Positions 35,712-55,730 of a stretch of 64,000 nucleotides of DNA are shown one piece after another. Position numbers and translations under genes: made by a program. How positions within the stretch are numbered: position 1 is the stretch's first letter; every line of letters starts with the position of its first letter. The notes below the pieces were generated by a model, which saw nothing but the letters and a program-made list of their open reading frames with translations, ran no database searches and was not told where the DNA came from. The DNA comes from Candidatus Levyibacteriota bacterium (GTDB lineage: Bacteria; Patescibacteriota; Microgenomatia; Levybacterales; UBA12049): the NCBI GenBank assembly GCA_016432345.1, contig CP066685.1:560236-624235 (forward strand), given 5' to 3'.

Positions 35712-36011
35712 ATGCCTAAAGTAACGGATTTATCCTCGTTTCAATCCCTCTATCTGCAAACTGCCAAAGAAAATGCGCAGGCTTTAAAAGACGGTTTGGA
35801 AAAGGGAGATATTGAAATTGCCTATAGAAACGCTCACACGCTAAAAAGCAAAAGTTTTGTGATGGGATATCAAGAAATAGGAAATCTGGCCAAAGTCATA
35901 GAAGACACTCTTTACAATATAAAAAACAACAAAGCTGTACTTTCGCAGGAAACACTTAAAATACTAACAGATCAAACAACGCGAATTGAAACGCTGCTGT
36001 TTCAGATATGA
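35712..36011 (+). CDS. HPt (histidine phosphotransfer) domain protein
   Basis: 99 aa four-helix-type sequence with the phospho-His context AHTLKSKS. Confidence 0.7.
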   Translation: MPKVTDLSSFQSLYLQTAKENAQALKDGLEKGDIEIAYRNAHTLKSKSFVMGYQEIGNLAKVIEDTLYNIKNNKAVLSQETLKILTDQTTRIETLLFQI

Positions 36012-38055: not shown

Positions 38056-38066
38056 GCTTTTAGATT

Positions 38067-39122: not shown

Positions 39123-39128
39123 CATTTT

Positions 39129-39590: not shown

Positions 39591-41449
39591 TGAAAGGACA
39601 ATCTCTTGTTGAGCTGTTGTTGGCAATTGCTTTTGCCGGAATTATTATTCCAGTTCTTTTTACTGGATTTTTGACATCTCGGGATGGTAAAGCCCAAGAA
39701 GCAAAGCGTTTATTAGCCATACCTCTTCTTAAAGAAGCCCAAGAAGCAGCAAGAATGGTAAGAGAAAAAGACTGGAACACTTTTTCGGTAAACGGTACGT
39801 ACCATCCTGTTGTTTCTGGCAACACTTGGTCATTTATTGCAGGCACAGAAAGTATTAATGATTTTAATCGAAATCTTGTTGTAAGTGATGGCGCTGATTC
39901 TTCAATAAAAAAAGTTGTCGCCACTGTTTCCTGGTCTACTCCTCGCGCATCATCGGTTGCATCAACCATGTATTTAAGCCGTTATATAAATAATTCTGTT
40001 TATATACACACAACCGCAAATGATTTTAACGCTGGAACAAAAACAGGCGTAACAGTTACTAATACAAGCGGCGGAGAGGTTATTTTGGGGGCAGGCGGCA
40101 ATGCCGACTGGTGCGCGCCTAATTTGTCTATAGCGGCTTTGGATCTTCCTAAAAGCAGCGCTGCAAAAGCAATAACAGCCGTGTATGGCGAAGCATTCGC
40201 CGGTACCGGCCAGGATTCATCAGGAGAGTCTTTAGTTGATATTTTTGTATCTAATACACATCCGCCTGCTGCCAGTATTAATACTACATTTGACGGGTAT
40301 AAAACAAACGATGTTTTTGGCGAGGTAGGTTTTGCCTATATTGCTACTGACACAAACGCAAAAGAAGTTGTTATTATCAGTACTGCCAATAAGCCATTTA
40401 CCGAAGTTGGGTATTTTAATGCTCCGGGAAGCGAGGACGGGAAAAGCATTTTTGTATCGGGAAATACGGGGTATCTTGTTCAAGGGAATAAATTATGGAA
40501 TTTTGATCTCTCGAGCAAAGCTGGTTTGCGGCCAGCCGTTGATGCAGACGGGATAACACTGGCAGGAGAAGGCAAAGCCGTATACGTGGTTGGGAATTAT
40601 GCATATGTTGCTATAGAGGATAACAGTGTACAAATGCAGATAATTGATATAAGTAATTTGTCAAACATGGTTGTGGTTGGACAGGCAATAGTAAATGGAG
40701 AAGATGGGCAAGATATTTTTGTAAACAGCAGTGCAACAAGGGCATATTTAGTAACTAAGTCGTCGAGCAGTCAACGAGAGCTTTTTATAATTGACGTGTC
40801 CACAAAATCGGGAAATAGACCGATTATAGGAAGCTACGATACAAATGGCATGAATCCAAAAGGGGTTGAGGCGGTTACCAATAATAAGGTTATTGTTGTA
40901 GGAGAAAACGCAGAGGAATATCAGGTAGTTAATATACAAAATGAGACATCTCCAGTGCGTTGCGGAGGATTGCAGATTAATTCGGGTATTTTTGACAGCG
41001 CGTCTGTTATAGAACCAGATGGCGATGCCTTTGCTTACATAGTTACAGGAGATTCATCGGCGGAGCTTAAAATTATCGAAGGCGGGCCAGGTGGATCTTT
41101 TGCCACATCAGGCACTTTTGAGTCCAGCACATTCGATGCGATAAATTCTGTCACATTTAATCGTTTTATTGTGTCAGGCGATAAACCCCAACAGACAAAT
41201 CTTACATTTCAAGTTTCAGGCGCAGATGTAAATCCATTAACAGGGGACTGTACAGACATAACATTTAGTTTTGTAGGTCCAGATTTAACCTCAAATACCT
41301 ACTTTGCCACCTCGTCTGCAATTCCACTAAACACAACGGGCGAATACAAAAATCCTGCTCGTTGTTTTCGATATAAGTCGTTTTTGTCCACATCTGACCC
41401 AACTCAAAGCCCAGCATTATACGATATGACGGTTAATTATTCACCGTAA
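39590..41449 (+). CDS. Giant pseudopilin with beta-propeller (LVIVD-like) repeats
   Basis: 619 aa with the N-terminus MKG/QSLVELLLAIAFAGIII (Glu +5). Repeated GNxxYxV...IIDxS blocks (GNTGYLVQG, VVGNYAYVAIED...QIIDISN, ELFIIDVST) resemble LVIVD propeller repeats. Confidence 0.6.
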   Translation: MKGQSLVELLLAIAFAGIIIPVLFTGFLTSRDGKAQEAKRLLAIPLLKEAQEAARMVREKDWNTFSVNGTYHPVVSGNTWSFIAGTESINDFNRNLVVSDGADSSIKKVVATVSWSTPRASSVASTMYLSRYINNSVYIHTTANDFNAGTKTGVTVTNTSGGEVILGAGGNADWCAPNLSIAALDLPKSSAAKAITAVYGEAFAGTGQDSSGESLVDIFVSNTHPPAASINTTFDGYKTNDVFGEVGFAYIATDTNAKEVVIISTANKPFTEVGYFNAPGSEDGKSIFVSGNTGYLVQGNKLWNFDLSSKAGLRPAVDADGITLAGEGKAVYVVGNYAYVAIEDNSVQMQIIDISNLSNMVVVGQAIVNGEDGQDIFVNSSATRAYLVTKSSSSQRELFIIDVSTKSGNRPIIGSYDTNGMNPKGVEAVTNNKVIVVGENAEEYQVVNIQNETSPVRCGGLQINSGIFDSASVIEPDGDAFAYIVTGDSSAELKIIEGGPGGSFATSGTFESSTFDAINSVTFNRFIVSGDKPQQTNLTFQVSGADVNPLTGDCTDITFSFVGPDLTSNTYFATSSAIPLNTTGEYKNPARCFRYKSFLSTSDPTQSPALYDMTVNYSP

Positions 41450-41454
41450 AAACT

Positions 41455-41958
41455 ATGCGCTATAAGCTATACACTATACGCTTTCAAAAGGGTTTTACTC
41501 TTGTTGAAATGCTTATCTATATGGGACTTTTATCCATACTTTTGGTGGTGATGGTTGATTTATTTGCCGCAAGTCTTGACGTACAGCTTGAATCAACTGC
41601 TACCTCCAGTGTTGATCGGGATGGAAAGTTTTTATACGCCAGATTTTTGTACGACATACCAAGGGCGCAAAACATTGTTTCTCCTACTCTTGGCGCTTCT
41701 TCTAATACGCTGCAAATATCTATAGATGGAATAAATAATACTTATGCTATAAATGAGGGGTCGCTTAAACTAACAAACAACAATGGGATAAATATGTTAA
41801 ACAGTTTTGACACAACAGTGAGCAATCTTTTGTTTCAGCATCTTGGAAATACCGGCGGAAAACCTGTTATCCGTGTTTCGTATACGTTAAACAGTAAAAC
41901 GAGCCGAACTGCAGGAACGGAATCAAAAAATTTCCAAACAAGTATTGGTTTAAGATGA
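41455..41958 (+). CDS. Prepilin-type N-terminal domain protein (pseudopilin)
   Basis: 167 aa with FQKG/FTLVEMLIYMGLLSILLVV. Confidence 0.65.
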   Translation: MRYKLYTIRFQKGFTLVEMLIYMGLLSILLVVMVDLFAASLDVQLESTATSSVDRDGKFLYARFLYDIPRAQNIVSPTLGASSNTLQISIDGINNTYAINEGSLKLTNNNGINMLNSFDTTVSNLLFQHLGNTGGKPVIRVSYTLNSKTSRTAGTESKNFQTSIGLR

Positions 41959-42338
41959 GAATTATTTTTTGTCAAAAAGGTCAATCGCTGATTACGCTTC
42001 TTTTCTTTATGATTATTGCTATTACAATTATTTCTGCCTCTGTTGTGGTAACGCTTGTTAATACGCAAAGCACAAGTAGGCTTGAAATTACCAACAACGC
42101 TTATGTTATGGCAGAAAATGGCGCAGAAGATGCTATTTTAAAATTGTTGCGAAATCCAGATTATACTGGAGAAAGTTTTTCTTTGGGAGAGGCAAATATC
42201 ATAACTCAAGTTTCAGGTACAAATACTAAAGCGGCAACCATCGAAGCAAGGCTTAACGGTTTTATTCGCAAAATTCAAGTGAATCTTGATTATTCAAATA
42301 ATATCTTGCGTATGATATCCTGGAAAGAGGTGTTATAA
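41955..42338 (+). CDS. Pseudopilin-like protein lacking Glu+5
   Basis: 127 aa with CQKG/QSLITLLFFMIIAITIISA. There is a 4-nt overlap with the upstream pilin gene. Confidence 0.45.
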   Translation: MRIIFCQKGQSLITLLFFMIIAITIISASVVVTLVNTQSTSRLEITNNAYVMAENGAEDAILKLLRNPDYTGESFSLGEANIITQVSGTNTKAATIEARLNGFIRKIQVNLDYSNNILRMISWKEVL

Positions 42339-42340
42339 AA

Positions 42341-43024
42341 ATGGCCTTACAGCAAAGTATTATTTATCTTTCCCGCCAGGGGTTTGGCTACTATAGCAGC
42401 AGCCGTGTTTTGTGGTTTGCATTTCCTCAAACATCGGTAAAAGATTTAGATGTGATAAACAAAACCGAGTTGGTTAATTCAATAGAAATGTTTATTGACA
42501 AAAATCAAATTGCTAAAGCGTCGTGTTTTATGATTTTATCGGAGCATGTCTATTTTGAAAAGGATTATATTGGAGCATTAGACCAGCAGGAAATACTAAC
42601 GCAGGCATTTGCCGATACAGTGCCGTTTGAAAATGTTCTTAAAAAAACATTTCCGATAGAAAATGGTTTTAAGGTTGTGGCTGCAAACAAAGATCTTTGT
42701 TTGTGTATTCGGCAAGCTTTTTGGGAAAAGGGATTTGTTTTTGAAGCAATAACACCTGCCTTGATTGTTGGATCTCAAGTAGTAGAAAATGAAAATGGTT
42801 TGATTCAAGAGTCAATTGATTTACTTTTTCAAAAAATTGCAGTTTTTAGACAAAATGGTTTTTCGCTAGACGAACAAACTGCGCAAACAAAAATTGCTTC
42901 ACAGCCATTCGTTAGGCAAACCACTTCTTCGCAAAATAATAACTCAAAGATTATCTGGCTTTTGAGCGCGTTTTTTATTTTATTGCTTATCTTAGCTGGT
43001 TTGCTTTCGGGCAGGTTTTTTTAA
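42341..43024 (+). CDS. Hypothetical protein with C-terminal TM anchor, possibly pilus biogenesis
   Basis: 227 aa and the last gene of the pilus cluster, with a C-terminal hydrophobic tail IIWLLSAFFILLLILAGLL. The function is inferred from position only. Confidence 0.3.
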   Translation: MALQQSIIYLSRQGFGYYSSSRVLWFAFPQTSVKDLDVINKTELVNSIEMFIDKNQIAKASCFMILSEHVYFEKDYIGALDQQEILTQAFADTVPFENVLKKTFPIENGFKVVAANKDLCLCIRQAFWEKGFVFEAITPALIVGSQVVENENGLIQESIDLLFQKIAVFRQNGFSLDEQTAQTKIASQPFVRQTTSSQNNNSKIIWLLSAFFILLLILAGLLSGRFF

Positions 43025-43880: not shown

Positions 43881-43910
43881 TTGTCAAGAGTTAAGATAAA
43901 TTGATATAAT
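43881..43910 (+). promoter_or_regulatory. Promoter of tRNA-Lys
   Basis: TTGTCA (43881-43886), an 18-nt spacer, then TATAAT (43905-43910). The tRNA starts 10 nt downstream. Confidence 0.5.
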
Positions 43911-43920
43911 TATGTAGTTA

Positions 43921-43992
43921 GGGTCGGTAGCTCAGCGGTAGAGCAGGAGCCTTTTAAGCTCTTGGTCACAGGTTCGATCCCTGTCCGACTCA
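43921..43992 (+). tRNA. tRNA-Lys (TTT), no encoded CCA
   Basis: Hand fold: GGGTCGG TA GCTC AGCGGTA GAGC A GGAGC CTTTTAA GCTCT TGGTC ACAGG TTCGATC CCTGT CCGACTC A. Confidence 0.9.
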
Positions 43993-44002
43993 CAGTAGCG
44001 GG

Positions 44003-44018
44003 GTCTGATGAATCAGAC
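44003..44018 (+). terminator. Small hairpin after tRNA-Lys
   Basis: GTCTGA-TGAA-TCAGAC followed by TTATT. The stem and U-tract are weak. Confidence 0.3.
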
Positions 44019-44043
44019 TTATTGATTAGCTCGAAATACGGCG

Positions 44044-45546
44044 CTAAACTAGTGTTTCCAGAAATTCCCCAACGACTGCTAAAACTATCGTCATATCTAT
44101 GTTTTTATCTTCCTGTTTATTCTTATTTTCATTTAGTACTGCTATCTCTTGTACAACTTCTTTTAAGTTATCCTCTGCAAGCTTAATTGCTTCATCAGAC
44201 GAGAATTTCATCATTTGTTTGCCTATTAGTTTTTTTTGACTTTCCAATTCAGCAATCTTTTCATCAATTGTCTGGACATCACGTTGGCCTATGGTTAGAT
44301 TATCCTGCCATTTGCTTAAAACCCGTTGCTTGAGTTTCTCAACGCCTTCTTGCGTTACTTTAACTCTGCTAACAAAATTTTTGATGGTTTGCTCAAAGGT
44401 TTCTGCTGGAATTCTAAAATAATGATTTCTTTTATTACAGTGATAGGCGGGATAACGTGTACCATTTCTTCCTCTTGAAGCACTGCCATATAAAGGGTAT
44501 CTACAGGTTGGACACAAAACATATCTTTTATAAGGATAATCAGGATTTTTGACACATTTTTTAAGCCTCCATTCTTCTGGTTTGTTTTTATAGATAGTTA
44601 TTCCGCCATTTTCTTCAGTTAATACAACTTTACCTCTGTTTGCCTTATTAAACAGCTCAATTGATATTAAGCCATCAAATTTTGTTTTAACAGGCTGATC
44701 ATTAGTCCACTTTTCATCGTTTATTCCTGCATAAATCGGTTTACGGATATATTCTACAAAGCGTTTTACCGCAAGTTTTATACCTCCTCGTTCTCCTATA
44801 ACTACAGTTTTATCTTTTGGATCTCTTAGTAAATTTACTCTGGATTTATACCCCATTTTATTGACCTCTTCTATAATTTGTTCATCAGATATAGTTTTTT
44901 TAGCCCTTAACTCAAACATTTTAATAATAAGCGGGGCTTCTTTCGGATGAGGTTTAAGAATAACTCTTTTTCCATTAGGAGTATCTATTTTTACGTTCAT
45001 ATATCCATATGGAGAGGGTCTAACTCGATAACCCATTCTGACGTAACGAATTTCTGCCCCGATCATTCTGCTTAAAATATCTCTAATTTCATCTTTTGCT
45101 CTTTCTGCCTCTAAAATCTCTGACTTTTTAGTTGGAGAATAAACACTCCACGGAAATTCAATACCTAAATGCCCTAAGGTATTAACTTCTGTATTACCTA
45201 TAATCCCATAAATATCAATTAGCCTTACCCCATAATGGGTGAGCTGCATTTTCATATGATCATAAAAGTAAGAACCGCCCCTGGTAAACCTATCAATCGA
45301 TTTAATTATAAAAAGTTGGATATCATTTTTAGGGTTTTTACAGTAATCAATCGCTTCCTGTACAGGCTGTTCCTCTTTAGAAGCTGATTCCATAAAAATG
45401 AAGAATTTTTTTACGTTTATATTGTGGGCTTTGGCGAATTGTTCTATCTGTTCTTTCTGGGCTTGGGGAGAATCGCCCTGTAATCCCTGCTTTGTAGAGG
45501 AAACTCTGATTGCTGCTACTGCATTTTCAATTTTATACGGATTCAT
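44044..45546 (-). CDS. Large serine recombinase
   Basis: 500 aa with the resolvase-type catalytic N-domain (AAIRVSSTKQG, SIDRFTRG), a recombinase domain, the Cys ribbon CPTCRYPL...YHC and a C-terminal coiled coil. Confidence 0.9.
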   Translation of the reverse strand: MNPYKIENAVAAIRVSSTKQGLQGDSPQAQKEQIEQFAKAHNINVKKFFIFMESASKEEQPVQEAIDYCKNPKNDIQLFIIKSIDRFTRGGSYFYDHMKMQLTHYGVRLIDIYGIIGNTEVNTLGHLGIEFPWSVYSPTKKSEILEAERAKDEIRDILSRMIGAEIRYVRMGYRVRPSPYGYMNVKIDTPNGKRVILKPHPKEAPLIIKMFELRAKKTISDEQIIEEVNKMGYKSRVNLLRDPKDKTVVIGERGGIKLAVKRFVEYIRKPIYAGINDEKWTNDQPVKTKFDGLISIELFNKANRGKVVLTEENGGITIYKNKPEEWRLKKCVKNPDYPYKRYVLCPTCRYPLYGSASRGRNGTRYPAYHCNKRNHYFRIPAETFEQTIKNFVSRVKVTQEGVEKLKQRVLSKWQDNLTIGQRDVQTIDEKIAELESQKKLIGKQMMKFSSDEAIKLAEDNLKEVVQEIAVLNENKNKQEDKNIDMTIVLAVVGEFLETLV

Positions 45547-45751
45547 ATTGGTTATTTTCTACATCATTAGGCTGGACTGGAAAATTCCCCTTCTGGCTTT
45601 CTTCAACAATTCTTTCTAAAAGAATATCTGCCAAGGAGTCTAAAAGCTCGTCCGAAGATTTAGGAGTTATTACAGATGTAACTTTCGGACCAGGTTTTTT
45701 AGGATTGATTTGTTGTAGATTTTTATATTCTAAAGCGTTGAGAGTATTCAT
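45533..45751 (-). CDS. Small acidic protein upstream of and overlapping the recombinase gene
   Basis: 72 aa (…SSDELLDSLADILLERIVEESQKG…) with a 14-nt overlap on the recombinase start. The competing + ORF 45510..45815 looks like low-complexity antisense. Confidence 0.4.
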   Translation of the reverse strand: MNTLNALEYKNLQQINPKKPGPKVTSVITPKSSDELLDSLADILLERIVEESQKGNFPVQPNDVENNQYESV

Positions 45752-45763
45752 AAATTTAGCTTC

Positions 45764-45787
45764 ATATTATAAGGATACTTATAATAT
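45764..45787. promoter_or_regulatory. 24-bp palindrome carrying back-to-back TATAAT boxes
   Basis: ATATTATAAG-GATA-CTTATAATAT has perfect 10-bp arms. TATAAT reads on + at 45780-45785 and on - at 45771..45766. It lies between the minus-strand recombinase operon (ATG 45751) and the + strand ORFs. Confidence 0.45.
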
Positions 45788-45838
45788 ACTCTGCCTGGTT
45801 TTTATTGTCAAGTAAGAAAAGGGTTAATTCTTAATGAC

Positions 45839-46006
45839 ATGTTTGCTAACTGTAAAATGGGGAAAGTTTTTGTAACTGCTTTCCCTGATTTCGAAGAATT
45901 TAGAAAGCATACAAGTGGAATATCGTGGGAAACAGAGGTATGGATTGCTGAAAATCCCGATCATATGATTCACTACAATGGTGATCGCTTCATGGAACCA
46001 AGGTAA
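45839..46006 (+). CDS. Possible small protein (55 aa)
   Basis: Hand-found ORF MFANCKMGKVFVTAFPDFEEFRKHTSGISWETEVWIAENPDHMIHYNGDRFMEPR, below the track cutoff. It is followed 42 nt later by a good terminator hairpin. Confidence 0.35.
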   Translation: MFANCKMGKVFVTAFPDFEEFRKHTSGISWETEVWIAENPDHMIHYNGDRFMEPR

Positions 46007-46048
46007 TTTATTCTATATACTAGTTCATCTAGCAAAATTCTTACATTT

Positions 46049-46074
46049 AAGATAGCCTAAGCAGGCTATCTTTT
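46049..46074 (+). terminator. Rho-independent terminator
   Basis: AAGATAGCC-TAAGCA-GGCTATCTT (9-bp stem) running into TTTT. Confidence 0.6.
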
Positions 46075-46086
46075 ACATATGATTCG

Positions 46087-46317
46087 ATGGATTGCATTAT
46101 TAGATTTTTCATTTTATACTTTATTCAGTCTGAGCAAAAACCTGGCCAACAAGATTATAAAAGGGAATATGAGTATCATCATGATATGCTAGACCATAGT
46201 AGAGAGTTTGATAAATTAGTGGACTCAGTGCCGGAAGACAACACAAAAACTAGAGAAGCAATAAGAGGAATGTTTTATTCCAGACCAGATAAACTAATTG
46301 ATCCAGTGAAATTTTGA
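46087..46317 (+). CDS. Hypothetical small protein (76 aa)
   Basis: ORF from the track with a charged C-terminal half and no motif. Confidence 0.3.
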   Translation: MDCIIRFFILYFIQSEQKPGQQDYKREYEYHHDMLDHSREFDKLVDSVPEDNTKTREAIRGMFYSRPDKLIDPVKF

Positions 46318-46470
46318 AATTAAAACAAGAAGACCCGCCATTATTTGCAGAGGCGAATAAGGTTTATATGGATTACTTGAAGCAGTCCCTTGGGCTAGAG
46401 TGACTTTATAATTGATATTAAAATCCAACAATTTGACATCATGGGTAAAAGAAGCATACTTAATTGAGTT

Positions 46471-47793
46471 ATGGAACCAAAGTCAGAAGGTGCACCAAGA
46501 CAAGCAGAAAAAGCACAGGAACTAACCAAAGTCGGATTTAGCAAATTGGGACAATCCGATATTTTTGAAAGAGGCCCTTTTACCATCGGTGTTAATAACG
46601 ATGGCAGATATTCATTTTACCAGAACATGCAATCTAGACTAGCAATGGAAGCTATTACTGGAATTAAAGTTGCTACAACACAACCGTCAAATGCTCCTTG
46701 GTTAGCTGTCCTTGGAATGCATGAAAAGTGGGGAGAACACGTATCTATGGATGATCCTATTAGTGGATCCTCTATTAGTGGAGCACCCGGGAATGGAAAC
46801 GTTCCAGACTTTAGTGATATCTCGGGCAAAACCATGGAGCAACAGTTAACCGAAGCTGGTTTTACTAATGATAAACAAGGAGCGGGACTTTTTCAACGCA
46901 CATTCGGCAACGGAGAAAATACAGTAAATGTTATTGCTGTTGTTGAAGACGGAAAATTTAAAAAATTAATAAAGGAGAAAAGAATATATGATGATAGCTT
47001 ACTTGAAAAGATGGGATATGAAATAACAGGAGTTGGGGAAAATGAATTGTATGGTGGTCGTACAACACCTGTCCTAAGAGCAGAAAATGATGCATTAACA
47101 TTTGATATAGGATCTGGTGGAGGAACACTAAATGTAAAACTCAAGAGAGAATTAACGCCTGAAGAATTAGGAATTACTCCATTGCCAGAAACAGAACAAC
47201 CAGATGGATTTAGAATCGGAGGCGCAAATTCCACAGATACAATAAGAAGACTAACTACTATTAACGGTCAATCAATTGAAGAGTTAGAACGAAGGATGAG
47301 GCCAGCTTTAAGTATGGATAGACACTCTAACCTTCGTCCAACAGGTGGCATATCCATGGCTGGATTCTTAGGTCCTCAAGAGCGATTACTTGATGTTATG
47401 GCTGCCGACAATGATTATGTCCAATCACAGGGACTAACACATCAGGATTTAGCTAATCAGCTACGATATGCAGAGGAGCTTTATTTCAAACTTGGCGTCC
47501 TAGAATTTACATATCACGGTAGAAGATATGGCGTAAGCATTAAACAATGGCGCGGAATTCAAGATTCTCCCTTTAATGATGGGACAACAACCAATTCCGA
47601 CATACAAATTACCAATCTTGATACAGACACATCATTAAGCGCATCCCTTTTATTGCCAGATATGATAGAACGGTATGGGTTTTATGAAGGAAAGGGTGCT
47701 TCTTATAGACTTGCCCCAGAACAGATTATTGAAGTTTTCGATTTTTTAAAGGAAGAAGGACAACAAAGAGTTCAATGGCCAACGAAGGGTTGA
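46471..47793 (+). CDS. Hypothetical protein (440 aa), no recognisable domain
   Basis: Long ORF with normal amino-acid composition and no TM or signal peptide. It is the first of four co-directional unknown ORFs. Confidence 0.6.
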   Translation: MEPKSEGAPRQAEKAQELTKVGFSKLGQSDIFERGPFTIGVNNDGRYSFYQNMQSRLAMEAITGIKVATTQPSNAPWLAVLGMHEKWGEHVSMDDPISGSSISGAPGNGNVPDFSDISGKTMEQQLTEAGFTNDKQGAGLFQRTFGNGENTVNVIAVVEDGKFKKLIKEKRIYDDSLLEKMGYEITGVGENELYGGRTTPVLRAENDALTFDIGSGGGTLNVKLKRELTPEELGITPLPETEQPDGFRIGGANSTDTIRRLTTINGQSIEELERRMRPALSMDRHSNLRPTGGISMAGFLGPQERLLDVMAADNDYVQSQGLTHQDLANQLRYAEELYFKLGVLEFTYHGRRYGVSIKQWRGIQDSPFNDGTTTNSDIQITNLDTDTSLSASLLLPDMIERYGFYEGKGASYRLAPEQIIEVFDFLKEEGQQRVQWPTKG

Positions 47794-47815
47794 CTTTTCC
47801 ACGCTGCATTGGTAC

Positions 47816-47881
47816 TTATATATGTTACTTAGAATAAAATTATTGAAAATAGCGACTTGCCGAAGGCAAGTAAAATATTAA
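47816..47881 (+). repeat. 66-nt intergenic repeat, copy A, with conserved hairpin
   Basis: It aligns by hand to 58500-58564 (59 of 66 columns identical). The hairpin is ACTTGCC-GAA-GGCAAGT at 47855-47871. Confidence 0.85.
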
Positions 47882-47907
47882 TCAATAATATGCTAAAATT
47901 TTAACCA

Positions 47908-48582
47908 ATGGAAGCTGACGAACAAACTAAACCATTTAATTCATTTAAAGAGTATCTACAAGCGGATCCTCAGGGAGCAAGGGCTGCTCTTGCTTACGAT
48001 TCTTATGCTCTTTTATGTGGTCTCGATAGAGATAAATTTTGGGATGAGCAAGTTTATAACAATCTAAAACAAGTATTGGGAGTAGAAAATCCTGTTATGC
48101 ATGCAGGAGTGCATCTTTTAACTGTTGTAGAACAACGTAGGCATGAGGAAGTAGGTGGACGTAGTCCAGGATCAACTTCTGAATATGCATTTATTGCTAG
48201 AAGACAAAATGAAAGATATAGGAAAGAGCTTGAAGATTGGAAACAGGCAGAGCCAGAGGAGTATGAAAAAGCAAAAGAATTAATAGATGCTATTGCAGAG
48301 GGGAGATTAGAACTATTTGACCAAGCAAGAGTAAAACAGATACTGCACAGTTCAATTTATCATTTCCCTGGAATTGCACTAAGCTACAAAATATACAAAA
48401 ATCAAGAAACCGTCCAAGTATATGAAGAAGAATTAGCCAAAAAGAAGGCAACAGCTGCTCCTGTCCCATCTAGAGAAGGTAAAAGTGCTCGGGAAAGATA
48501 CCAGGAATACCTAAAACAACAAAATCTAGGATCTATTGGTACTTCAGATCAAACTTCTCCCGAGGAAGGTAAAAAAACTTAA
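47908..48582 (+). CDS. Hypothetical protein (224 aa)
   Basis: ORF with a charged, helical-looking sequence and no motif. Confidence 0.55.
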   Translation: MEADEQTKPFNSFKEYLQADPQGARAALAYDSYALLCGLDRDKFWDEQVYNNLKQVLGVENPVMHAGVHLLTVVEQRRHEEVGGRSPGSTSEYAFIARRQNERYRKELEDWKQAEPEEYEKAKELIDAIAEGRLELFDQARVKQILHSSIYHFPGIALSYKIYKNQETVQVYEEELAKKKATAAPVPSREGKSARERYQEYLKQQNLGSIGTSDQTSPEEGKKT

Positions 48583-48602
48583 AATGGTCTATAATTAACC
48601 AT

Positions 48603-49055
48603 ATGTCAGTAGAAGGAGAACGACAAAATTCAGGGGAAAGTTTAGAAGATCAATATAAAGAAGTAACTGTCTTGCCTTTTGATCAGGTAAAAAGAGGCAG
48701 TGAAATTCTGGTTTTTACCGGACGTACCCTTGAAGAAGTAAAAGATATTCCTGATTATACGATTAAAGTTGTGGGTATTAGAAAAAATGGACTATTAGTC
48801 CAGGTATCTCCTGCTTATAAAGGAATGGGAGGAGATTTTACAGCCAGAATGCCAGGAAGCTTTAGAGGAATTTATCCTGACGTTTCAAGAAATTCTTTAG
48901 ATTATACCCCTGGTGTAAATAATGGTGTATTAGAAGTGGCAGATGAGAAAGTAGCAAGTATGCTCCATTTTGAAAACCTCAAAGATTTGGATGGTGAAAG
49001 AATGGCTAAATCAAGTACAACATCTCCAATCAGAAAAATACTTTTTAAAACATAA
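48603..49055 (+). CDS. Hypothetical protein (150 aa)
   Basis: ORF with no recognisable motif. TATAAT (48590-48595) lies 7 nt upstream of the ATG. Confidence 0.55.
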   Translation: MSVEGERQNSGESLEDQYKEVTVLPFDQVKRGSEILVFTGRTLEEVKDIPDYTIKVVGIRKNGLLVQVSPAYKGMGGDFTARMPGSFRGIYPDVSRNSLDYTPGVNNGVLEVADEKVASMLHFENLKDLDGERMAKSSTTSPIRKILFKT

Positions 49056-49285
49056 AGTATAACCCGTCCAGATTATTTACAATTAAATGATCCAGATTAT
49101 CTTGATGAAGCTACAAATGATTGCTTGCTCAGGATTTAGAAGCTGCTAAGGAAGCAGGACTGACAGAAGTTGCTGGAAAGATTCAGACAAAAATAGATGA
49201 TATTGAGAGAATCCGTAATGCTTTTGGCTCATAAAGCCTACCCTATAGTTGTTAAATAGCTAAAAAAGAGTATAATGCAGTCACC

Positions 49286-51274
49286 ATGGTACCCGATATT
49301 CAACCTTGGAGGCCAAACCTACCTGAGTCAGGAATAAAACCTACAGAAAGATTGAATGCCACTCAAAAAGCGGATGTTATTAGGATGTCTCGCGTTGAAG
49401 CTATCCTTCAAGAAACACTTGCTCAAGAAGGAATGCCAAATGCTGTATCGGGAGAAATTTGGAGAAACGAAGAAGATGCAACTTTTATTCTGTGGACAAA
49501 AAATCATGGGTTTTTTATTCAGTGGCAAGGTCCAGCAACATATCTTCAAGTAAAAGAAGTAATTAAATCTTATGGTGAAGATACTGTAGAATTTTTCTCT
49601 CATTTTCCGAAAAGCTCTGAATATACAAACCCCCAATTGCGTCCGGTTACAAATAGAATAAAGGCAGCCGTTGTGGCTGAACCGACCCCTGAAGAATTAC
49701 AAAGACTACCTGAAATTTTAGCAGCTAACCATAGAAGGGTGTCAGAAGCCTTTCTTTTCCAAATCAGAGAAGCTGTATCTAAAGGTGAGATATGGGGCAT
49801 TCCCCGCGATTTAGAATCTGCAAAAGAAAATGCTAGAGAAGCCGGAATAAGTATTGATCCTCAATTGGAACATGATATTTTTCAAGCATATCATCTTAGA
49901 AGAAGACAATTGGATTTTGCACAGTTACCAAAAATAAGAGGTGATGTTATGAGAAGAATGGATCCTTTTGTAGACCGAATTATTGAATCAGATGATTTTT
50001 TGGGAGAGGAACATCCAGACATTGTTAAAAGCTATGCTGGTAGAGCTGCCTTGCAAGCACTAAGAATAATTAGAGATTACACCCCTTTAGGATTTAACGA
50101 TAAAGATAGTGCAAGAGCCAGGATAAGGCAGTTTGAACTCTGGGAAGGAAAAGCTCTAAAATGGGCAAACGCTGCTGGAATAGATATTACTCAACAATTA
50201 GAAGCATTAAGAACTGTTGTGAATTCAGAGACGCAGGAGGCTTTAAAACCGATCCACAGAAGGATTTTAGATAGAGTCCAGAGAACACTTACGGGAGAGG
50301 TTGCTCAACCCAGAGCATTGGTTCCTAAACCAGACTTGGGTCCAGAAGATAAAGAAATAGAGCCAGCTTATCAGGATGATATCTCTGTTCTGATAAAAAC
50401 AAATAAAGGAAGGATTATTGGAGCGCAGTTAAGAAATGATAAGACTAATCAAGATTTTAGAATTGTGTTTCCGCTTAACTCATTTTCCCAAGAAGAAATT
50501 TTAGCAGCTTTAGATAAAACATTTCCTGGGGCAGAAGTTTATCATTCAACTCCCGATTTTCTACCCACCCAAGAAAAAACAACTGACGTATCGGACAGAA
50601 AATTTGCTGGTATTAGAATACCTTTAAAAGAAGAAAAACCTGTAGGTGGATCCAGGGTAAGAGCATTGTGGTTAACTGTTAGAGACGGAGCAACGCACTC
50701 TTTTGGTGCCGATACTCTAGCTTCTCCCAATGGGCCGATTGAGAATTTCTACTTTCCATATGACTCTTTAAATATAAAGATTGAAGGGGAATTTGATACA
50801 ACAGGCACATACGTATTGGGAGATGGATGGGTATTGCATCCTGCGTATCACCCCCTAACTGAGGCAGAATGGTCCCAAATGCATCAGAAGTTAGGAACCA
50901 TTCTCGAGCATTTATTTGAAAGTGGAAACGTCGTTACGGATTCAATTACTTCTATGAGTATCCATCCAGGTTCAGGTTCTCCACTGAGACCTGAGGAGTT
51001 TACAAAAAAGGCAGGATATCATTTAGAAAAAGCACAGCAGCAAATAACTGTTGAAGATGGTAATAATCTAAAGACTACAGAGAAACCAACAGTCGATTAC
51101 CCAAATCGGGAAGCTGGTAAATTTGTTTTTCAAGATGGAGAAAATCAGTTTGGGATTATAAATAGAAGAAATGGATATTTAATTAGCGATCTGTATACCT
51201 TAGTTAAGTTTTATCCTGAGGGATTACACTTTAATGAATTAACTCAAGAAATAGAAAAGTTAAGAGTAATGTAA
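49286..51274 (+). CDS. Hypothetical protein (662 aa), no recognisable domain
   Basis: Long ORF with no recognisable motif. TATAAT (49271-49276) lies 9 nt upstream of the ATG. Confidence 0.6.
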   Translation: MVPDIQPWRPNLPESGIKPTERLNATQKADVIRMSRVEAILQETLAQEGMPNAVSGEIWRNEEDATFILWTKNHGFFIQWQGPATYLQVKEVIKSYGEDTVEFFSHFPKSSEYTNPQLRPVTNRIKAAVVAEPTPEELQRLPEILAANHRRVSEAFLFQIREAVSKGEIWGIPRDLESAKENAREAGISIDPQLEHDIFQAYHLRRRQLDFAQLPKIRGDVMRRMDPFVDRIIESDDFLGEEHPDIVKSYAGRAALQALRIIRDYTPLGFNDKDSARARIRQFELWEGKALKWANAAGIDITQQLEALRTVVNSETQEALKPIHRRILDRVQRTLTGEVAQPRALVPKPDLGPEDKEIEPAYQDDISVLIKTNKGRIIGAQLRNDKTNQDFRIVFPLNSFSQEEILAALDKTFPGAEVYHSTPDFLPTQEKTTDVSDRKFAGIRIPLKEEKPVGGSRVRALWLTVRDGATHSFGADTLASPNGPIENFYFPYDSLNIKIEGEFDTTGTYVLGDGWVLHPAYHPLTEAEWSQMHQKLGTILEHLFESGNVVTDSITSMSIHPGSGSPLRPEEFTKKAGYHLEKAQQQITVEDGNNLKTTEKPTVDYPNREAGKFVFQDGENQFGIINRRNGYLISDLYTLVKFYPEGLHFNELTQEIEKLRVM

Positions 51275-51547
51275 TGTTATCATTTAGAGTTGAAGTTTAA
51301 AGGCCAAACATAAAACAATATGTACAAACAGCAGAAGTTAATATAATTATGTAGTCTTTGTAAGAATATTTTTATTATTGCAAGATGTCGGAATACTGGG
51401 GTTAAGTATACTATTTTAACTGCTGTATGGTTTTGGTCGGTAATAATTAAGGCTTTAGCTTTACTTAAAACCTAAAAACAAAGTCATGATATAATCCAAG
51501 TCAGATTCTGCTCATTTAATCTACTGCCTATGCTGTCCTAAAAGTAT

Positions 51548-54238
51548 ATGGCGCAAACTAATTTTTCTGAAGCTTTTCCTTCATACTTAAAACCTTTATC
51601 TCAACTTCACCTATCTGTTGTTGCTATCATTGGAATCTCAATAGGAATTGCTATCTCCTTTGTTGTTGGGTGGCTTTACCTGATATATTTAAAACTTCGA
51701 AATGCTCATAATCAAAAATACACTCTTTTAGAAATCAAACCAACCAATAAAACGTTAAAATCTCCGCTTTCTACTACACAGTTGTATACAGTACTCCATT
51801 CTCTGGTAGAAGGAGAATCAGGATTTTTATATACCACTCACAAAAGCATTAGTTTAGAAATAGCTTCTACGAAAGAGGATGGGATCAGATTTATTGTCAG
51901 AGTTCCTCAAAAAGAAGCAGGGATAGTTACCAAAAATGTTTATTCATATCTACCTGGAGTTGAGATTAACCAAATTGATGATTATTTCTCACTTAAGCTT
52001 TTTGATATTGATTCTTTTGACCATGTAGGAGTGCAGGAGATGAGACTGACAAACTCCTATCTTCTGCCTCTTGATAACCAGGATTCGCTAGGACAAGTTG
52101 ATCCTATTGCATATATCACAGGACAAATGACACAACTGGTAGAAAATGAATTAGTAGTAGCTCAATTTATCGCCACACCTATTCACAAATCAACTCATGG
52201 CAGTGCTACAGACATAATCAGTCAAGCACAAAAAAGATTAGAGGATAATTTAGATATTTCAGATCTTATTAATAAAACGAAATATAGCTCTATTACGCGT
52301 TTTTTTAATTATTTCATAAACTCCATTATTGTTGATCATGGTGGAGCTGCTGCTGGGTACGTATTAAACCAATGTCTTTCTCTATTTTTAAATATCGAGA
52401 ACAAATCAGATTCTCACTCTAAAAAACCAAAACATAAACAGATTAGTGAACTTGGGGCTCATAAACAAAAGCAGTTTCAAGCTGTTTCCCAAAAAATTAC
52501 CCAACCGTTATTTGATACCACTGTTCGGTTTGTTATCTATACTCCTCACAAAGAAACTATTAAGGATAGATTAAGAGGCATGGTTTCAGGTTTTGAAACC
52601 TCCCAGTCTGACTATCAAAAACTGAAAAAAGGGATGTACCTTAGATCATTCCTAGAAATTAGACGGTTAAATAAGTTTTATTTAATGTTACTCAAAGACC
52701 GTTTACCCTTAAGTTTTAACAGTGTTATTCTATCTGCTTCAGAACTTTCTTCTTTATATCATCTGCCCTATACAATCACCACCAAAACAGAAGATATTGC
52801 CAAAAATTTCTACAACGAGCTGCCAGCTCCGCTTTCTTTAAAGCAAAACGCAAACTTAGATATTGTATTTGCCAAAAACACCTATGGAGGAGTAGTTACC
52901 CCTATTGGAGTAACAAAGCTTGAACGGACTGGACATTTTTTTGTGATTGGTCAAACGAGAAGTGGAAAAACCAACATGATCAAACAAATGATTATTCAAG
53001 ATATTCAAAAAGGGAGAGGGGTGGTACTGGTTGATCCTCATGGAGATTTAGCCAAGGAACTAATTCCTTTTATTCCAGAAGAACGAATCAATGATTTTAT
53101 GTATTTTAATCCACGGGATATTAAACACCCGATGGGGATTAACTTATTGCAGCTTTCCAATATTGACGATGAGGATGAGAAGGAACTGGAAAAAGATATT
53201 GTTTCAGAAAGCGCGATTTCTATTTTACGAAAAATCTTTACCGATAAATCTTCAACCAATGCCTTTAAAATTGAATCAATTTTAAGAAACACCATTCACA
53301 CTGCTTTTTTAACCAAAGATCCGACACTTTTTACTATTTTTGATTTATTAAATAATCCAGAAATCAGATCCCAGGCTTTACAAAAAATAACTGACCCAAG
53401 ACTGATGGATTTTTGGCGGGAAGAATTTGGCAACTCTGGGGATTGGCAACGGGTAAAAATGGTAACTCCAGTTAATGCTCGTATTGGCAGATTTTTATTC
53501 TCTCCTATTATGAAAAGGGTTTTAGAGCAGAAAAAATCTACCATTAATTTTGATGATTTGTTAAACAACGAAAAAATCCTCATCTGTAATTTATCGAAAG
53601 GTGATATTTCTGAAGATAATTGTGAAGTCTTGGGAACGTTAATTATTACTAAAGTGAGACAAGCTGCGGAGAAAAGATCTTTAATGGATCCAAAAGATAG
53701 AAAGCCATTGTATTTATATGTTGATGAGTTTCAAAACTTTGCTACTCCTTCATTTGTAAAGATGCTTTCAGAACTTGGGAAATTTGGTATCAATATTATT
53801 ATTGTTGAACAATCAACCTCACAACAAGCAGATAGAACTCTCACAAATGTTATTTTGGCTAATACTGGTAATGTGATTACTTTCAAAACTGCTAACCCTA
53901 TTGATGAGGACTTAATGCTTGCCCAATTTTCTCCTGATGCGGAAAAAGGTCATATTCCTAATTTGCCAAGATATCACTTTTATATGAAGAAAGGTGCAGT
54001 TGAGCCGGAAGCACCTTTTTCTGGAATAACCGATCCAGTAGAGATAAAAGAAGATAAAGAAAAAGTAGAGCGGTTTATTGAAGCTTCAAGAAAAAACTAT
54101 GCAATAGAATACAAAAAGCCAGAACCTGCCCCTATTGTTGCGCCTCAAACACCACCTGCAAATAACCATAAATCCTTTAAACCAAAAAATACCGCTCCTA
54201 AAAATATAGTGGTAAAACCGTCTAAATACCTGGGTTGA
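51548..54238 (+). CDS. Type IV coupling protein-like / TraD-VirD4-HerA-type DNA-transfer ATPase
   Basis: 896 aa with an N-terminal TM (IIGISIGIAISFVVGWLYLIYL), the Walker A GQTRSGKT and the Walker B LYLYVDEFQNF. A Pro-rich tail ends the protein. Confidence 0.7.
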   Translation: MAQTNFSEAFPSYLKPLSQLHLSVVAIIGISIGIAISFVVGWLYLIYLKLRNAHNQKYTLLEIKPTNKTLKSPLSTTQLYTVLHSLVEGESGFLYTTHKSISLEIASTKEDGIRFIVRVPQKEAGIVTKNVYSYLPGVEINQIDDYFSLKLFDIDSFDHVGVQEMRLTNSYLLPLDNQDSLGQVDPIAYITGQMTQLVENELVVAQFIATPIHKSTHGSATDIISQAQKRLEDNLDISDLINKTKYSSITRFFNYFINSIIVDHGGAAAGYVLNQCLSLFLNIENKSDSHSKKPKHKQISELGAHKQKQFQAVSQKITQPLFDTTVRFVIYTPHKETIKDRLRGMVSGFETSQSDYQKLKKGMYLRSFLEIRRLNKFYLMLLKDRLPLSFNSVILSASELSSLYHLPYTITTKTEDIAKNFYNELPAPLSLKQNANLDIVFAKNTYGGVVTPIGVTKLERTGHFFVIGQTRSGKTNMIKQMIIQDIQKGRGVVLVDPHGDLAKELIPFIPEERINDFMYFNPRDIKHPMGINLLQLSNIDDEDEKELEKDIVSESAISILRKIFTDKSSTNAFKIESILRNTIHTAFLTKDPTLFTIFDLLNNPEIRSQALQKITDPRLMDFWREEFGNSGDWQRVKMVTPVNARIGRFLFSPIMKRVLEQKKSTINFDDLLNNEKILICNLSKGDISEDNCEVLGTLIITKVRQAAEKRSLMDPKDRKPLYLYVDEFQNFATPSFVKMLSELGKFGINIIIVEQSTSQQADRTLTNVILANTGNVITFKTANPIDEDLMLAQFSPDAEKGHIPNLPRYHFYMKKGAVEPEAPFSGITDPVEIKEDKEKVERFIEASRKNYAIEYKKPEPAPIVAPQTPPANNHKSFKPKNTAPKNIVVKPSKYLG

Positions 54239-54321
54239 TAGATGAATTTCAATATCAATCGTTTGATACTGGAAAACAATAAAAATGAAGCTAAAAAGTT
54301 ACATTTCACTCCTTATATACT

Positions 54322-54343
54322 CTTAATATATAAATATATTAAG
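54322..54343. promoter_or_regulatory. Perfect 22-bp palindrome upstream of the replication-relaxation-like gene (candidate operator or oriT repeat)
   Basis: CTTAATATAT-AA-ATATATTAAG, 14 nt upstream of ATG 54358. It is AT-rich, so the statistical weight is modest. Confidence 0.35.
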
Positions 54344-54357
54344 GGAAAGAGAACTTT

Positions 54358-55179
54358 ATGGAAAAACTAAAGAAAACTACACAACCTTTATCTAATCATC
54401 AAGAACGATTAAATCCATTCCTAGAACAAATACTGATCTTTATTTACAAATTCCGCTACTTATCCAGACCTCAAATACAAAAACTTATGAACCACAAACA
54501 TCACCACACTATTATGCTCTGGCTTAACTATTTAGTAAGTAACAAATACTTAAGAAAATACATTGACTCAAAATACAAAATAGAATCAGCCTACTTTTCA
54601 CTGGGGACAATGGCGAGAAAATATTTTTTAAAGACTGCTGAAATCCAGGATATCAATTATCCTAAACTGGATCGTGTTTGGAAAGAAAATAGTTATTCAG
54701 AAAGTTTTAAAAAACACTGTATGTTTTTAGCACATATTTATCTTTCTCTTCTTGATTTAGTCAAATCAGTTGATGAAGGAAAAGGTAAACTGCATTATTT
54801 TTCTAATGCTGACTTAGAAGGGGTCGAGCATATGATTTATCCTTTGCCGGATGCATACTTTACTATTGAGGATAAAGATGGTGCTATTGAGCGTTACTTT
54901 CTTGATGTGTTTTATGATTACACCAGATGGGGTGATATGGAAAAAAGAGTCAAACAATATCTTAATTACTGCAATAAACAAACCTGGCAGTTATATATGA
55001 AACATGATTTTCCAAAAGTGATTTTAGTTTGCCCTAAACCAATATCAAAAAATAACTTGGAAGAATATATTCAAAAGATGTATAAAGAAAAAGGTAAAAG
55101 AGTTGCTTTTTATTTAAGCACAAAAGAAGAGATACGATACCAGGGTATGAATAGCAGAACTTTACATGAAGTAAAATAA
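54358..55179 (+). CDS. Replication-relaxation family-like protein
   Basis: 273 aa with a winged-helix-like N-terminus ILIFIYKFRYLSRPQIQKLM...MLWLNYLVSNKYL. It is adjacent to the coupling ATPase, as in Gram-positive elements. From memory of PF13814, not searched. Confidence 0.5.
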   Translation: MEKLKKTTQPLSNHQERLNPFLEQILIFIYKFRYLSRPQIQKLMNHKHHHTIMLWLNYLVSNKYLRKYIDSKYKIESAYFSLGTMARKYFLKTAEIQDINYPKLDRVWKENSYSESFKKHCMFLAHIYLSLLDLVKSVDEGKGKLHYFSNADLEGVEHMIYPLPDAYFTIEDKDGAIERYFLDVFYDYTRWGDMEKRVKQYLNYCNKQTWQLYMKHDFPKVILVCPKPISKNNLEEYIQKMYKEKGKRVAFYLSTKEEIRYQGMNSRTLHEVK

Positions 55180-55211
55180 ACCTGCCGCTTGGATCTGACA
55201 AACGGCAGGTT
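55179..55211 (-). terminator. Terminator of the DUF2958-like gene
   Basis: AACCTGCCG (55179-55187) / CGGCAGGTT (55203-55211) form a 9-bp stem. On the minus strand it is followed by TATTTTAC. Confidence 0.5.
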
Positions 55212-55216
55212 AAAGC

Positions 55217-55516
55217 TTACTCATGCATTTTTTTAATAACTGACAAAGGTTGAGGTTCAAAATGCAGATCTCGCTCAACCCTAAGTCCATATGGTCCTTC
55301 TACCCACGAAAGCTCGGACAAGGAAAAATACCCGAGTTCGTTGTAGTCACCCACTACAAACCCGAAAAAAGTATCATTTCCGTCAAATTCAATGGCATAC
55401 CATGTCCATTTAGTCCAGGGACAGAAGAATTTGCAGATAACCATAGGATCTTTTGCGTTTTCCATTGCATAAAGTACTGGTAACTTTTCTGTTATGTATT
55501 TTGGTATAAGCATCAT
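55217..55516 (-). CDS. DUF2958-like protein
   Basis: 99 aa. KFFCPWTKWTWYAIEFDGNDTFFGFVVGDYNELGYFSLSELSWVEGPYGLRVERDLHFEP matches the DUF2958 pattern I remember from conjugative plasmids. Confidence 0.65.
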   Translation of the reverse strand: MMLIPKYITEKLPVLYAMENAKDPMVICKFFCPWTKWTWYAIEFDGNDTFFGFVVGDYNELGYFSLSELSWVEGPYGLRVERDLHFEPQPLSVIKKMHE

Positions 55517-55610
55517 GTATGTATCACCCCCTTCCTTTGCTTCCTAAATAATTATTTTTAGGTAGCAGCCTGCCTGCTACCAATACATGCTGCAAGCTTA
55601 GCGGGGTGAG

Positions 55611-55658
55611 TTTTGCAAGGGCGACGAAGAATGAGGAGTGCACTTTACCCTTGCAAAA
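55611..55658. repeat. Inverted repeat TTTTGCAAGGG / CCCTTGCAAAA (11-bp arms, 26-nt loop)
   Basis: Arms lie at 55611-55621 and 55648-55658. The right arm is part of the 14-mer ACCCTTGCAAAATG, which recurs at 58567-58580. Confidence 0.7.
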
Positions 55659-55730
55659 TGAGGGGTGCAACCCCTAAAAAGAGCTAGGAACACTTAGACA
55701 AATTTTGAGAATTTGAGGAGTACTTTTATT

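Follow-up and report, generated by a model that had tools for sequence, protein, structure and literature searches.

A probable integrative mobilizable element beside tRNA-Lys in a Candidatus Levyibacteriota genome, with relatives across the Patescibacteria

The stretch of DNA analyzed here (the window: 64,000 nucleotides of contig CP066685.1, assembly GCA_016432345.1) comes from a metagenome-assembled genome (MAG) of Candidatus Levyibacteriota, an ultra-small bacterium of the Patescibacteria, or candidate phyla radiation (CPR). It contains a mobile DNA island of 11.7 kb, from 43994 to about 55675, that abuts the 3' end of a tRNA-Lys(UUU) gene and is a discrete element of a large, apparently undescribed CPR family. 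We consider it likely that the island is an integrative mobilizable element (IME) of a large Patescibacteria family. Between its discrete ends it combines an integration module, a relaxase gene and a coupling protein gene with no mating-pore genes, which is the gene content of an IME. No mating-pair-formation module or VirB4 gene, such as an ICE (integrative and conjugative element) would carry, lies between 43994 and 55675; nor does the island resemble an actinomycete ICE (AICE), since FtsK_SpoIIIE stays below its cut-off and a relaxase-family gene is present. A preliminary description of the region had named a large serine recombinase, an overlapping open reading frame (ORF) of 72 residues, the motifs of a coupling ATPase, a replication-relaxation-like protein and a DUF2958 protein, all of which are present. 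It had also drawn a discrete element, at 43993–55516; the discreteness stands, and the right end moves outward to about 55675 to take in a structured non-coding element at 55553–55683.

The core of the island recurs in many CPR genomes. With an alignment of 19 relatives of the ATPase, we scanned the GTDB, taking a single genome for each species, and the JGI metagenomes, and we searched the 160 returned loci with iterated hidden Markov models made from the window proteins. The ATPase has very many CPR relatives at about 44% identity, and about 40 of the 160 loci repeat one module, made up of the recombinase with its small ORF, the DUF8128/VirD4-type ATPase and the Replic_Relax protein. Within the close ATPase clade, taken as matches above roughly 450 bits, a Replic_Relax-like gene lies directly downstream of the ATPase gene in 17 GTDB and 23 JGI loci, and 16 GTDB and 18 JGI loci carry a large serine recombinase that has a small ORF upstream of it. 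DUF2958 was found in 8 GTDB and 8 JGI related loci, and a covariance model detected the structured element in 20 loci. The shared order is tRNA, recombinase (−), small ORF (−), variable genes that often include an XRE regulator, ATPase (+), relaxase (+), small ORF (−) and DUF2958 (−), and the smallest versions measure about 6.5 kb (L025, L100). Rather than keeping the same order at the same locus in all relatives, the module lies beside different tRNA genes and with different cargo, such as copper and heavy-metal resistance (L016), a hydrolase (L019) or a transglutaminase-core protein (L098), which agrees with the earlier proposal of mobilizable DNA without a mating pore of its own. The DUF2958 protein is at least 90% identical between the window and a Ca. 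Daviesbacteria MAG (L193, GCA_016187025.1), and the structured elements beside it are near-identical save for an inner hairpin; at the sequence level, such identity across lineages is evidence of recent spread.

Two side observations concern these relatives. The closest ATPase relative (L098, 64% identity) has, at 5245–5556, an ORF of 103 residues consisting of a resolvase domain alone, located between DUF2958 and the structured element. Eight loci (L017, L021, L024, L026, L029, L084, L055 and L056) come from MAGs labeled Gammaproteobacteria, Methylococcaceae, Chlamydiae or Bulleidia; their contigs have a uniform GC content of 34–44%, and the tRNA array that L024 also has is of CPR style. Mis-binning of CPR contigs is the probable cause, the alternative being transfer between host and epibiont.

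By sequence and by structural model, the ATPase (896 residues; 51548–54238, + strand) is a VirD4/TrwB-type coupling protein with an extra domain. It carries the motifs GQTRSGKT and VDEFQNF and matches TrwB_AAD_bind (30.8 bits, cut-off 20.5), TraG-D_C (24.6 bits, cut-off 22) and DUF87 above the Pfam cut-offs. An N-terminal transmembrane (TM) helix is followed by DUF8128 (precomputed annotation, residues ~50–420) and the VirD4/TrwB-type ATPase (~450–860); a hydrophobic stretch at residues 22–48, modeled as one long helix from 22 to 55, is the predicted membrane anchor. The best solved relatives by sequence are TrwB (2.4e-8) and DotL, and the C-terminal half of the AlphaFold 2 (AF2) model superposes on TrwB (template modeling score 0.64–0.69) and on Cag-beta in Foldseek. 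With the full-length model, the best Foldseek E-values are to VirB4/TrwK over about 900 columns, at global template modeling scores of 0.33–0.36, and DUF8128 may resemble the N-domain of VirB4. The earlier assignment to a transfer family is thus upheld by sequence and fold, and transfer of the FtsK/TraB type, one of three routes then suggested, is not, because FtsK_SpoIIIE is unmatched (E 0.084, 12.8 bits against a cut-off of 24) and the ATPase is TrwB-like. The protein also matches NCBIfam CedD (1.3e-11) and, over its full length, phrog_5156 (1.7e-64), with a weak match to a terminase PHROG. Proteins of Bacillus phages (SPO1 gp27.4, phage G gp156) share about 21% identity with it over some 56–66% of its length, and a scan of IMG/VR returned distant matches to the ATPase domain alone.

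The gene that follows (54358–55179, + strand) encodes a protein of 273 residues that is a candidate MOB_C-type, non-HUH relaxase, with a MarR-like winged helix-turn-helix (wHTH) and a PD-(D/E)XK-like core predicted from sequence and model. NCBI names it a replication-relaxation family protein. Its own match to Replic_Relax (PF13814, E 8e-4) falls below the Pfam cut-off; PF13814 is matched by 19 of 23 close homologues, at best with 1e-15, and there is a weak match to the replication initiation protein family phrog_2190. PF13814 is the MobC profile of CONJscan (Coluzzi 2017, PMC5357655), Replic_Relax has been placed in the PD-(D/E)XK superfamily with fusions to HTH domains (Steczkiewicz 2012, PMC3424549), and the MOB_C relaxases TraX of pAD1 and MobC of CloDF13 are restriction-endonuclease-like PD-(D/E)XK proteins (PMC12857230). 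The preliminary description had seen no classical relaxase, having overlooked that the "relaxation protein" it listed is itself a candidate member of this recognized non-HUH relaxase family. The AF2 model (predicted local distance difference test 88.8) has an N-terminal winged helix, for which the top Foldseek matches in the PDB are all MarR-family regulators, and a C-domain of alpha-beta-beta-beta-alpha-beta topology. Residues E110, D152 and P164-D165 are near-invariant; strand 3 (FLD-V/I-F) shows no obvious lysine of the classic (D/E)xK kind. Among 1.84 billion representatives, the relaxase profile finds 1,248 representative clusters at E ≤ 1e-3.

Downstream of the relaxase gene, a bidirectional terminator hairpin (55179–55211; a 13-bp stem, then a T run) separates it from the convergent DUF2958 gene (55217–55516, − strand; Pfam 7.4e-17). 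Directly outside DUF2958, the elements have in common about 125 nt (window 55553–55683, + strand) with covariation-supported structure. It begins with a palindromic hairpin, H1 (55561–55581), that varies in sequence between elements and keeps its pairing; an unpaired AGCGGGGTGA follows at 55600–55609, then a 12-bp long-range stem (55610–55621 with 55648–55659) enclosing a variable hairpin, and a terminal GC hairpin, H4 (55661–55675), past which homology between elements ends. In an alignment of 20 loci, 85.8% of cells are paired and 17 of 26 pairs show compensatory changes, values that none of 500 shuffles reached and to which slid controls compare with at most 68%. The G-U pairs fit the + strand only. 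Breaks in Logan assemblies at 55624 and 55647–55650 bracket the variable inner hairpin. No Rfam family matches the structured element, no promoter-like site was found ahead of it, and the strong bidirectional terminator parts it from the ATPase-relaxase operon. Our best guess is that it is a candidate origin of transfer (oriT), in which the palindrome would suit a dimeric wHTH protein and a conserved nick region would lie nearby. Francia and co-workers reportedly described, in 2013, the features of MOB_C relaxases with an oriT that has a large inverted repeat. We also considered the structured element as an arm of an attachment site and rejected this on account of L099, where it has an internal position, with the relaxase side on one flank and the s55-recombinase pair on the other.

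At the other end, the recombinase gene (44044–45546, − strand; 500 residues) was correctly placed next to tRNA-Lys, with a gap of 50 nt instead of the 52 given earlier. A Resolvase domain (PF00239, 1.5e-9) is above cut-off, the alignment has a conserved AIRVSSTKQ motif, and the integrase family phrog_95 is matched at 2.6e-33. It is therefore a serine recombinase as described; what had gone unnoticed is that the allele is truncated. Zn_ribbon_recom reaches 19.5 bits against a cut-off of 25.3, the C-terminal domains being incomplete, and the 500 residues compare with 556–600 in all close homologues, among which the window protein is alone in being short, and with 528–630 in full-length homologues, nearly all of the at least 120 homologues listed being longer. 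Alignment with the recombinase gene of L015 indicates that about 106 nt are absent: the L015 C-terminus aligns to window 44065→43919 (57% identity, 4e-11), and the normal C-terminal tail is still encoded from 44065 to the tRNA, in another frame.

The length of the missing piece has a counterpart in the relatives. In 11 of 12 full-length subfamily-A recombinase genes, a direct repeat spaced at exactly 106 nt is the longest found at spacings of 90–125 nt (the repeats lie at the 3' ends of the recombinase genes of L016, L019, L020, L023, L024, L026, L028, L099, L100, L114 and L123). These repeats are 8–14 nt long, for example TTTCTGGAACACC, TTTTGGAACACCT, ATGGAACACC, TCTCGAAC and TTTCCGAAA; their sequence differs between elements and matches within each, and the two copies are read in different frames. 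The window has a single copy, TTTCCAGAAA (44055–44064), bordered on the left as repeat 1 is and on the right as repeat 2 is. By its sequence, the window allele is a clean 106-bp repeat-mediated deletion at this site; as 106 is 3n+1, the frame shifts, a stop follows four codons later, and about 75 conserved residues are lost. Two independent Logan assemblies break inside the repeat at 44059, where unitigs L001 and L002 start. At k = 31, such breaks would imply that those samples contain another allele, in the simplest case the intact gene, which suggests that an intact recombinase allele coexists with the truncated one. An exact look-up of the recombinase protein returned no record. Two other interpretations were tried and discarded: a circularly permuted gene with its C-terminus at the right end, for which six-frame translation and simulated junctions gave nothing, and unitig ends as excision junctions, all contigs being collinear with the window and the break at 44059 coinciding with the deletion repeat.

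Upstream, the ORF of 72 residues (45533–45751, − strand) overlaps the recombinase start by 14 nt. Its motif LADI(L/I)(L/I)ER(I/L)(V/L)EE recurs in the small ORFs that precede the recombinase, on its upstream side, in L099, L100 and family f6. The protein belongs to a conserved small-protein family coupled to the recombinase, which is compatible with the earlier idea of a directionality factor; we regard this translationally coupled protein as a candidate directionality or accessory factor.

The integration target is the tRNA-Lys(UUU) gene (43921–43993, + strand, anticodon ttt by ARAGORN). The recombinase ORF overlaps, by its 3' end, a tRNA gene of the opposite strand in at least 12 loci, and the C-terminal peptides of the recombinases are recognizable in the alignment as antisense-tRNA translations. 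The tRNA partner varies among Lys-UUU, Lys-CUU, Val, Gln, Leu-UAG, Leu-GAG, Leu-CAG, Arg and Glu. A tRNA-Glu/tRNA-Lys(UUU) pair is common to the window and L015, and a tRNA-Arg/tRNA-Lys(CUU) pair to L018, L024 and L099; because such pairs are common to loci with different recombinase subfamilies, the tRNAs are host genes. The first ~10 nt past the tRNA are kept within recombinase subgroups, being AGTAGCGGGG in the window, L100 and L099, and TA(C/G/T)AGAAC in L022, L025 and L035. This conservation sets the element's left arm at the 3' end of the tRNA, at 43994 or within a few nt of it, which we infer to be the left boundary and the B arm of attL. The junction zone (43994–44043), which contains a remnant of the recombinase 3' coding end, holds AGTAGCGGGGT (43994–44004) and a hairpin GTCTGAT-GA-ATCAGAC (44003–44018).

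The right end, at 55675 (up to +3), is set by the stop of identity between elements: related elements in different contexts are identical through the terminal hairpin and then diverge (L024 versus L026; the window versus L192 and L193). No displaced tRNA 3' fragment that would mark attR was found at the far end in at least 12 loci by exact and Smith-Waterman searches, with the exception of L037. The earlier statement that there are no att repeats holds, and a serine integrase whose 2-bp crossover lies close to the tRNA terminus would not be expected to leave a tRNA-derived repeat. L037 itself is flanked by two tRNA-Leu genes, CAG and GAG (3690–3896 and 20497–20629), that agree over 28 nt in the 5' flank and over 30 nt at the 3' end and differ in their anticodon arms, which suggests an element-borne tRNA copy or recombination inside the tRNA. 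From these ends, the predicted attP junction reads ...GAGGGGTGCAACCCCT|AGTAGCGGGGTCTGATG... and the predicted attB junction ...CCGACTCAC[A]|AAAAGAGCTAGGAAC.... The 9-mer TAGCGGGGT occurs at 43996 and 55599, and had been put down to chance. It is expected 0.12 times per window, and both copies lie in sequence conserved among relatives, the right one in the motif of the structured element and the left one in the conserved left arm, so the pair is probably not due to chance. If attP is reconstructed, the left copy and the terminal hairpin would together make up an inverted repeat, ACCCC/GGGGT.

Between the integration module and the ATPase lie cargo ORFs of 55, 76, 440, 224, 150 and 662 residues (45839–51274, + strand). 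They have no matches in Pfam, NCBIfam, PHROG or PADLOC, leaving them without a function by profile searches, and no homologues in the GTDB-scan loci or in L097 and L098. The five that were looked up (76, 440, 224, 150 and 662 residues) fall into clusters of one or two sequences at 90% identity. As they are conserved in none of these related loci, we take the ORFs without function to be cargo and not transfer machinery, contrary to the suggestion that four of them might serve transfer. Outside the island, housekeeping genes lie to the left, together with a chromosomal type IV pilus locus, and to the right come TspO and then a defense-type island; PADLOC returned no matches among the cargo and flanking proteins tested. 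The pilus locus (36008–43024: response regulator, PilB-like ATPase, PilC-like platform, LVIVD-repeat protein and pilins) sits immediately left of tRNA-Glu/tRNA-Lys, outside the element, and was rejected as a part of it. A 15-mer, ATATAATTATGTAGT, that contains TATAAT occurs at 43904–43918 in the tRNA-Lys promoter (TTGTCA-18-TATAAT) and again at 51341–51355, 193 nt upstream of the coupling ATPase gene.

How such an element would move is suggested by three relatives. No VirB4, channel or mating-pore gene was found in the element or elsewhere in the 64-kb window, as the preliminary description had noted. In L035 (4715–21618), L018 (18270–22280) and L019 (8395–13563), however, genes of a type IV secretion system (T4SS) adjoin the element: VirB2 pilins, a pilin-TrbL/VirB6 fusion, PrgI/VirB3, a VirB4-like ATPase and an M23 peptidase. 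Those of L035 form one contiguous run with the coupling ATPase, and the relaxase, the recombinase and tRNA-Gln bound them, so that this locus may be a complete ICE. Of the three routes put forward earlier, transfer by means of another system is the best supported, the helper being a resident Patescibacteria T4SS and not the upstream pilus locus. The recombinase and the small directionality protein would excise the element between a site at the tRNA 3' end and a site just past H4. The MarR-like domain of the relaxase would then bind the oriT palindrome, its PD-(D/E)XK domain would nick the + strand nearby, and the element's coupling ATPase would hand the relaxase-DNA complex to a resident chromosomal T4SS with VirB2/3/4/6-like proteins. 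In the recipient, the recombinase would put the circle back next to the cognate tRNA, and the reading frame of the integrase would extend into that tRNA from the opposite strand. Every step past gene content and comparative mobility is one that we infer from sequence.

Several observations weigh against this picture. Most relatives have no T4SS genes within 10 kb, and there are none within the 64-kb window, the part of the genome inspected. The module is limited to one clade of Patescibacteria type IV coupling proteins (T4CPs), more distant T4CPs (about 28% identity) being without it. The window relaxase scores 20.0 bits against a Pfam gathering cut-off of 25.3, and Foldseek gave its C-domain no PDB fold match to a nuclease. 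That the structured element works as oriT is a guess, as is the nick site. The recombinase is truncated, so excision is probably impaired in this copy, whereas its genes for transfer look intact. Finally, the empty site and circular junction proposed earlier as a check were not found in the Logan contigs and JGI loci searched: we recovered no attB, attP junction or circular contig, and the case for mobility is a comparative one.

Among other explanations, the one that fares best, and that we still find unlikely, is that the element transfers itself. The ATPase alone would then act as a membrane-anchored hexameric translocase, like TraB of Streptomyces AICEs or archaeal CedD, with DUF8128 in place of VirB4 and a channel. 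It is the element's sole ATPase, it matches CedD, its full-length Foldseek matches to VirB4/TrwK hint at a VirB4-like N-domain, and most relatives, as noted, have no T4SS genes within 10 kb. But the missing FtsK_SpoIIIE match, the TrwB-like ATPase domain with TraG-D_C and the low global similarity to VirB4 argue otherwise; the relaxase and the hairpin-rich site point to conjugation of single-stranded DNA, which needs a channel, and the module has no conserved pore-forming or multi-TM protein.

We judge it improbable, too, that the island is an integrated plasmid-like replicon, in which Replic_Relax would be mainly a replication initiator, the structured element a replication origin and the ATPase a device for partition or DNA pumping. 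CPR bacteria are naturally competent, and such a replicon could spread by natural transformation, which would fit an element free of mating-pore genes. PF13814 is annotated for replication and relaxation alike (PMC3424549), and the weak phrog_2190 match points the same way. The relaxase is, however, constantly coupled to a VirD4-type protein, which has no known role in replication. None of the 80 JGI loci is a circular contig, no circular or extrachromosomal contig occurs among the 160 loci, and a tblastn search of PLSDB with the relaxase gave zero matches, leaving the replicon without a plasmid homologue in that database.

It is more improbable still that this is a domesticated chromosomal module, with the ATPase and the wHTH-nuclease serving defense or an epibiotic T4SS that delivers effectors or DNA to a host bacterium, and with the recombinase a fossil. 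The truncated recombinase and the adjoining defense island would suit this view, and exaptation of T4CPs has been suggested by Quinonero-Coronel et al. (PMC12102498). Against it stand the relatives with intact recombinases at different tRNA sites and with different cargo, the near-identical DUF2958 across lineages and the absence of PADLOC matches among the cargo and flanking proteins tested. A prophage remnant or phage satellite with the ATPase as a packaging or translocation motor is very improbable: the full-length phrog_5156 match, the weak terminase match and the distant Bacillus phage relatives are countered by the presence of a relaxase, by the lack of capsid, portal or tail genes and by the restriction of IMG/VR matches to distant ATPase domains.

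Returning to an IME as the likely identity of the island, its family bears on two puzzles in CPR biology. A survey of Patescibacteria found 5,713 T4CP homologues, mostly far from virB4 (Quinonero-Coronel et al. 2025, PMC12102498). Its commonest relaxase class was MOBC (58), 39 relaxase genes lay near t4cp, and relaxases were concluded to be nearly absent, while FATA-like T4SSs are widespread on the chromosomes and T4CPs are mostly orphans (PMC12102498). The window ATPase is one of the 5,713. In that survey the T4CPs were not linked to serine recombinases, tRNA sites or mobile elements, whereas here one clade sits on small integrative elements, in about 40 relatives beside a divergent MOB_C-type relaxase. 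This family may explain some of the coupling ATPases reported as orphans in CPR and some of the relaxases that seem to be missing there. If the elements are mobilized via the resident T4SS, they would represent an active conjugative route of gene flow in CPR, carrying uncharacterized cargo here and heavy-metal resistance in relatives, and would offer ready-made carriers for genetic tools in bacteria that are very hard to manipulate. With their position next to tRNA genes, the serine integrases could widen the integrase toolbox by new site specificities, and the co-varying 106-nt repeats and the structured element are two conserved DNA features of note. A further-reaching proposal, which we put forward only tentatively and with more doubt than belief, is that one large orphan-T4CP clade and divergent MOB_C relaxases, mostly missed by standard MOB profiles, form a phylum-wide set of tRNA-targeting serine-integrase IMEs riding the reportedly essential CPR T4SS, which would still be a working conjugation machine. 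Two features would then be unprecedented: an integrase ORF completed antisense across a tRNA, and co-varying 106-nt repeats acting as a built-in switch for truncating the integrase and locking the element in place.

Among known systems, the element most resembles the streptococcal IME_Class_8 (Coluzzi et al. 2017, PMC5357655), which is likewise compact, has no mating-pore genes and encodes a Rel_PF13814/MobC relaxase and a canonical VirD4 coupling protein in addition to its serine integrase, and which is presumed to hijack a FATA-type T4SS (PMC5357655). It differs in its host (Patescibacteria rather than Bacillota), in the extra DUF8128 domain of about 370 residues on the coupling protein, in a module that includes DUF2958 and the 125-nt structured element, and in insertion at tRNA 3' ends, where the integrase ORF extends into the tRNA in antisense. 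Hundreds of clusters make up the family here, against two examples there, and the helper would be a chromosomal, reportedly essential T4SS instead of an ICE or plasmid. The relaxase resembles TraX of pAD1 and MobC of CloDF13 in combining a MarR-type wHTH with a predicted PD-(D/E)XK-like domain and in having no HUH or Tyr motifs (PMC12857230); unlike them, the window protein is very divergent, below the Pfam cut-off and without a tblastn match in PLSDB, and its activity is predicted from sequence. AICEs of the TraB/FtsK type are similarly small, tRNA-associated and equipped with a single DNA-translocating ATPase and no T4SS, but they use tyrosine (some serine) integrases and an FtsK-like pump for double-stranded DNA and have no relaxase, whereas the present element has a VirD4-type ATPase and a relaxase. 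In the Myxococcus phage Mx8, attP lies inside the phage's own integrase gene, intP, and Mx8 Int is a tyrosine recombinase. There, as here, integration alters the 3' end of the integrase ORF or determines where it lies; in the elements of this family, by contrast, it is a large serine recombinase that reads into a tRNA gene on the opposite strand.

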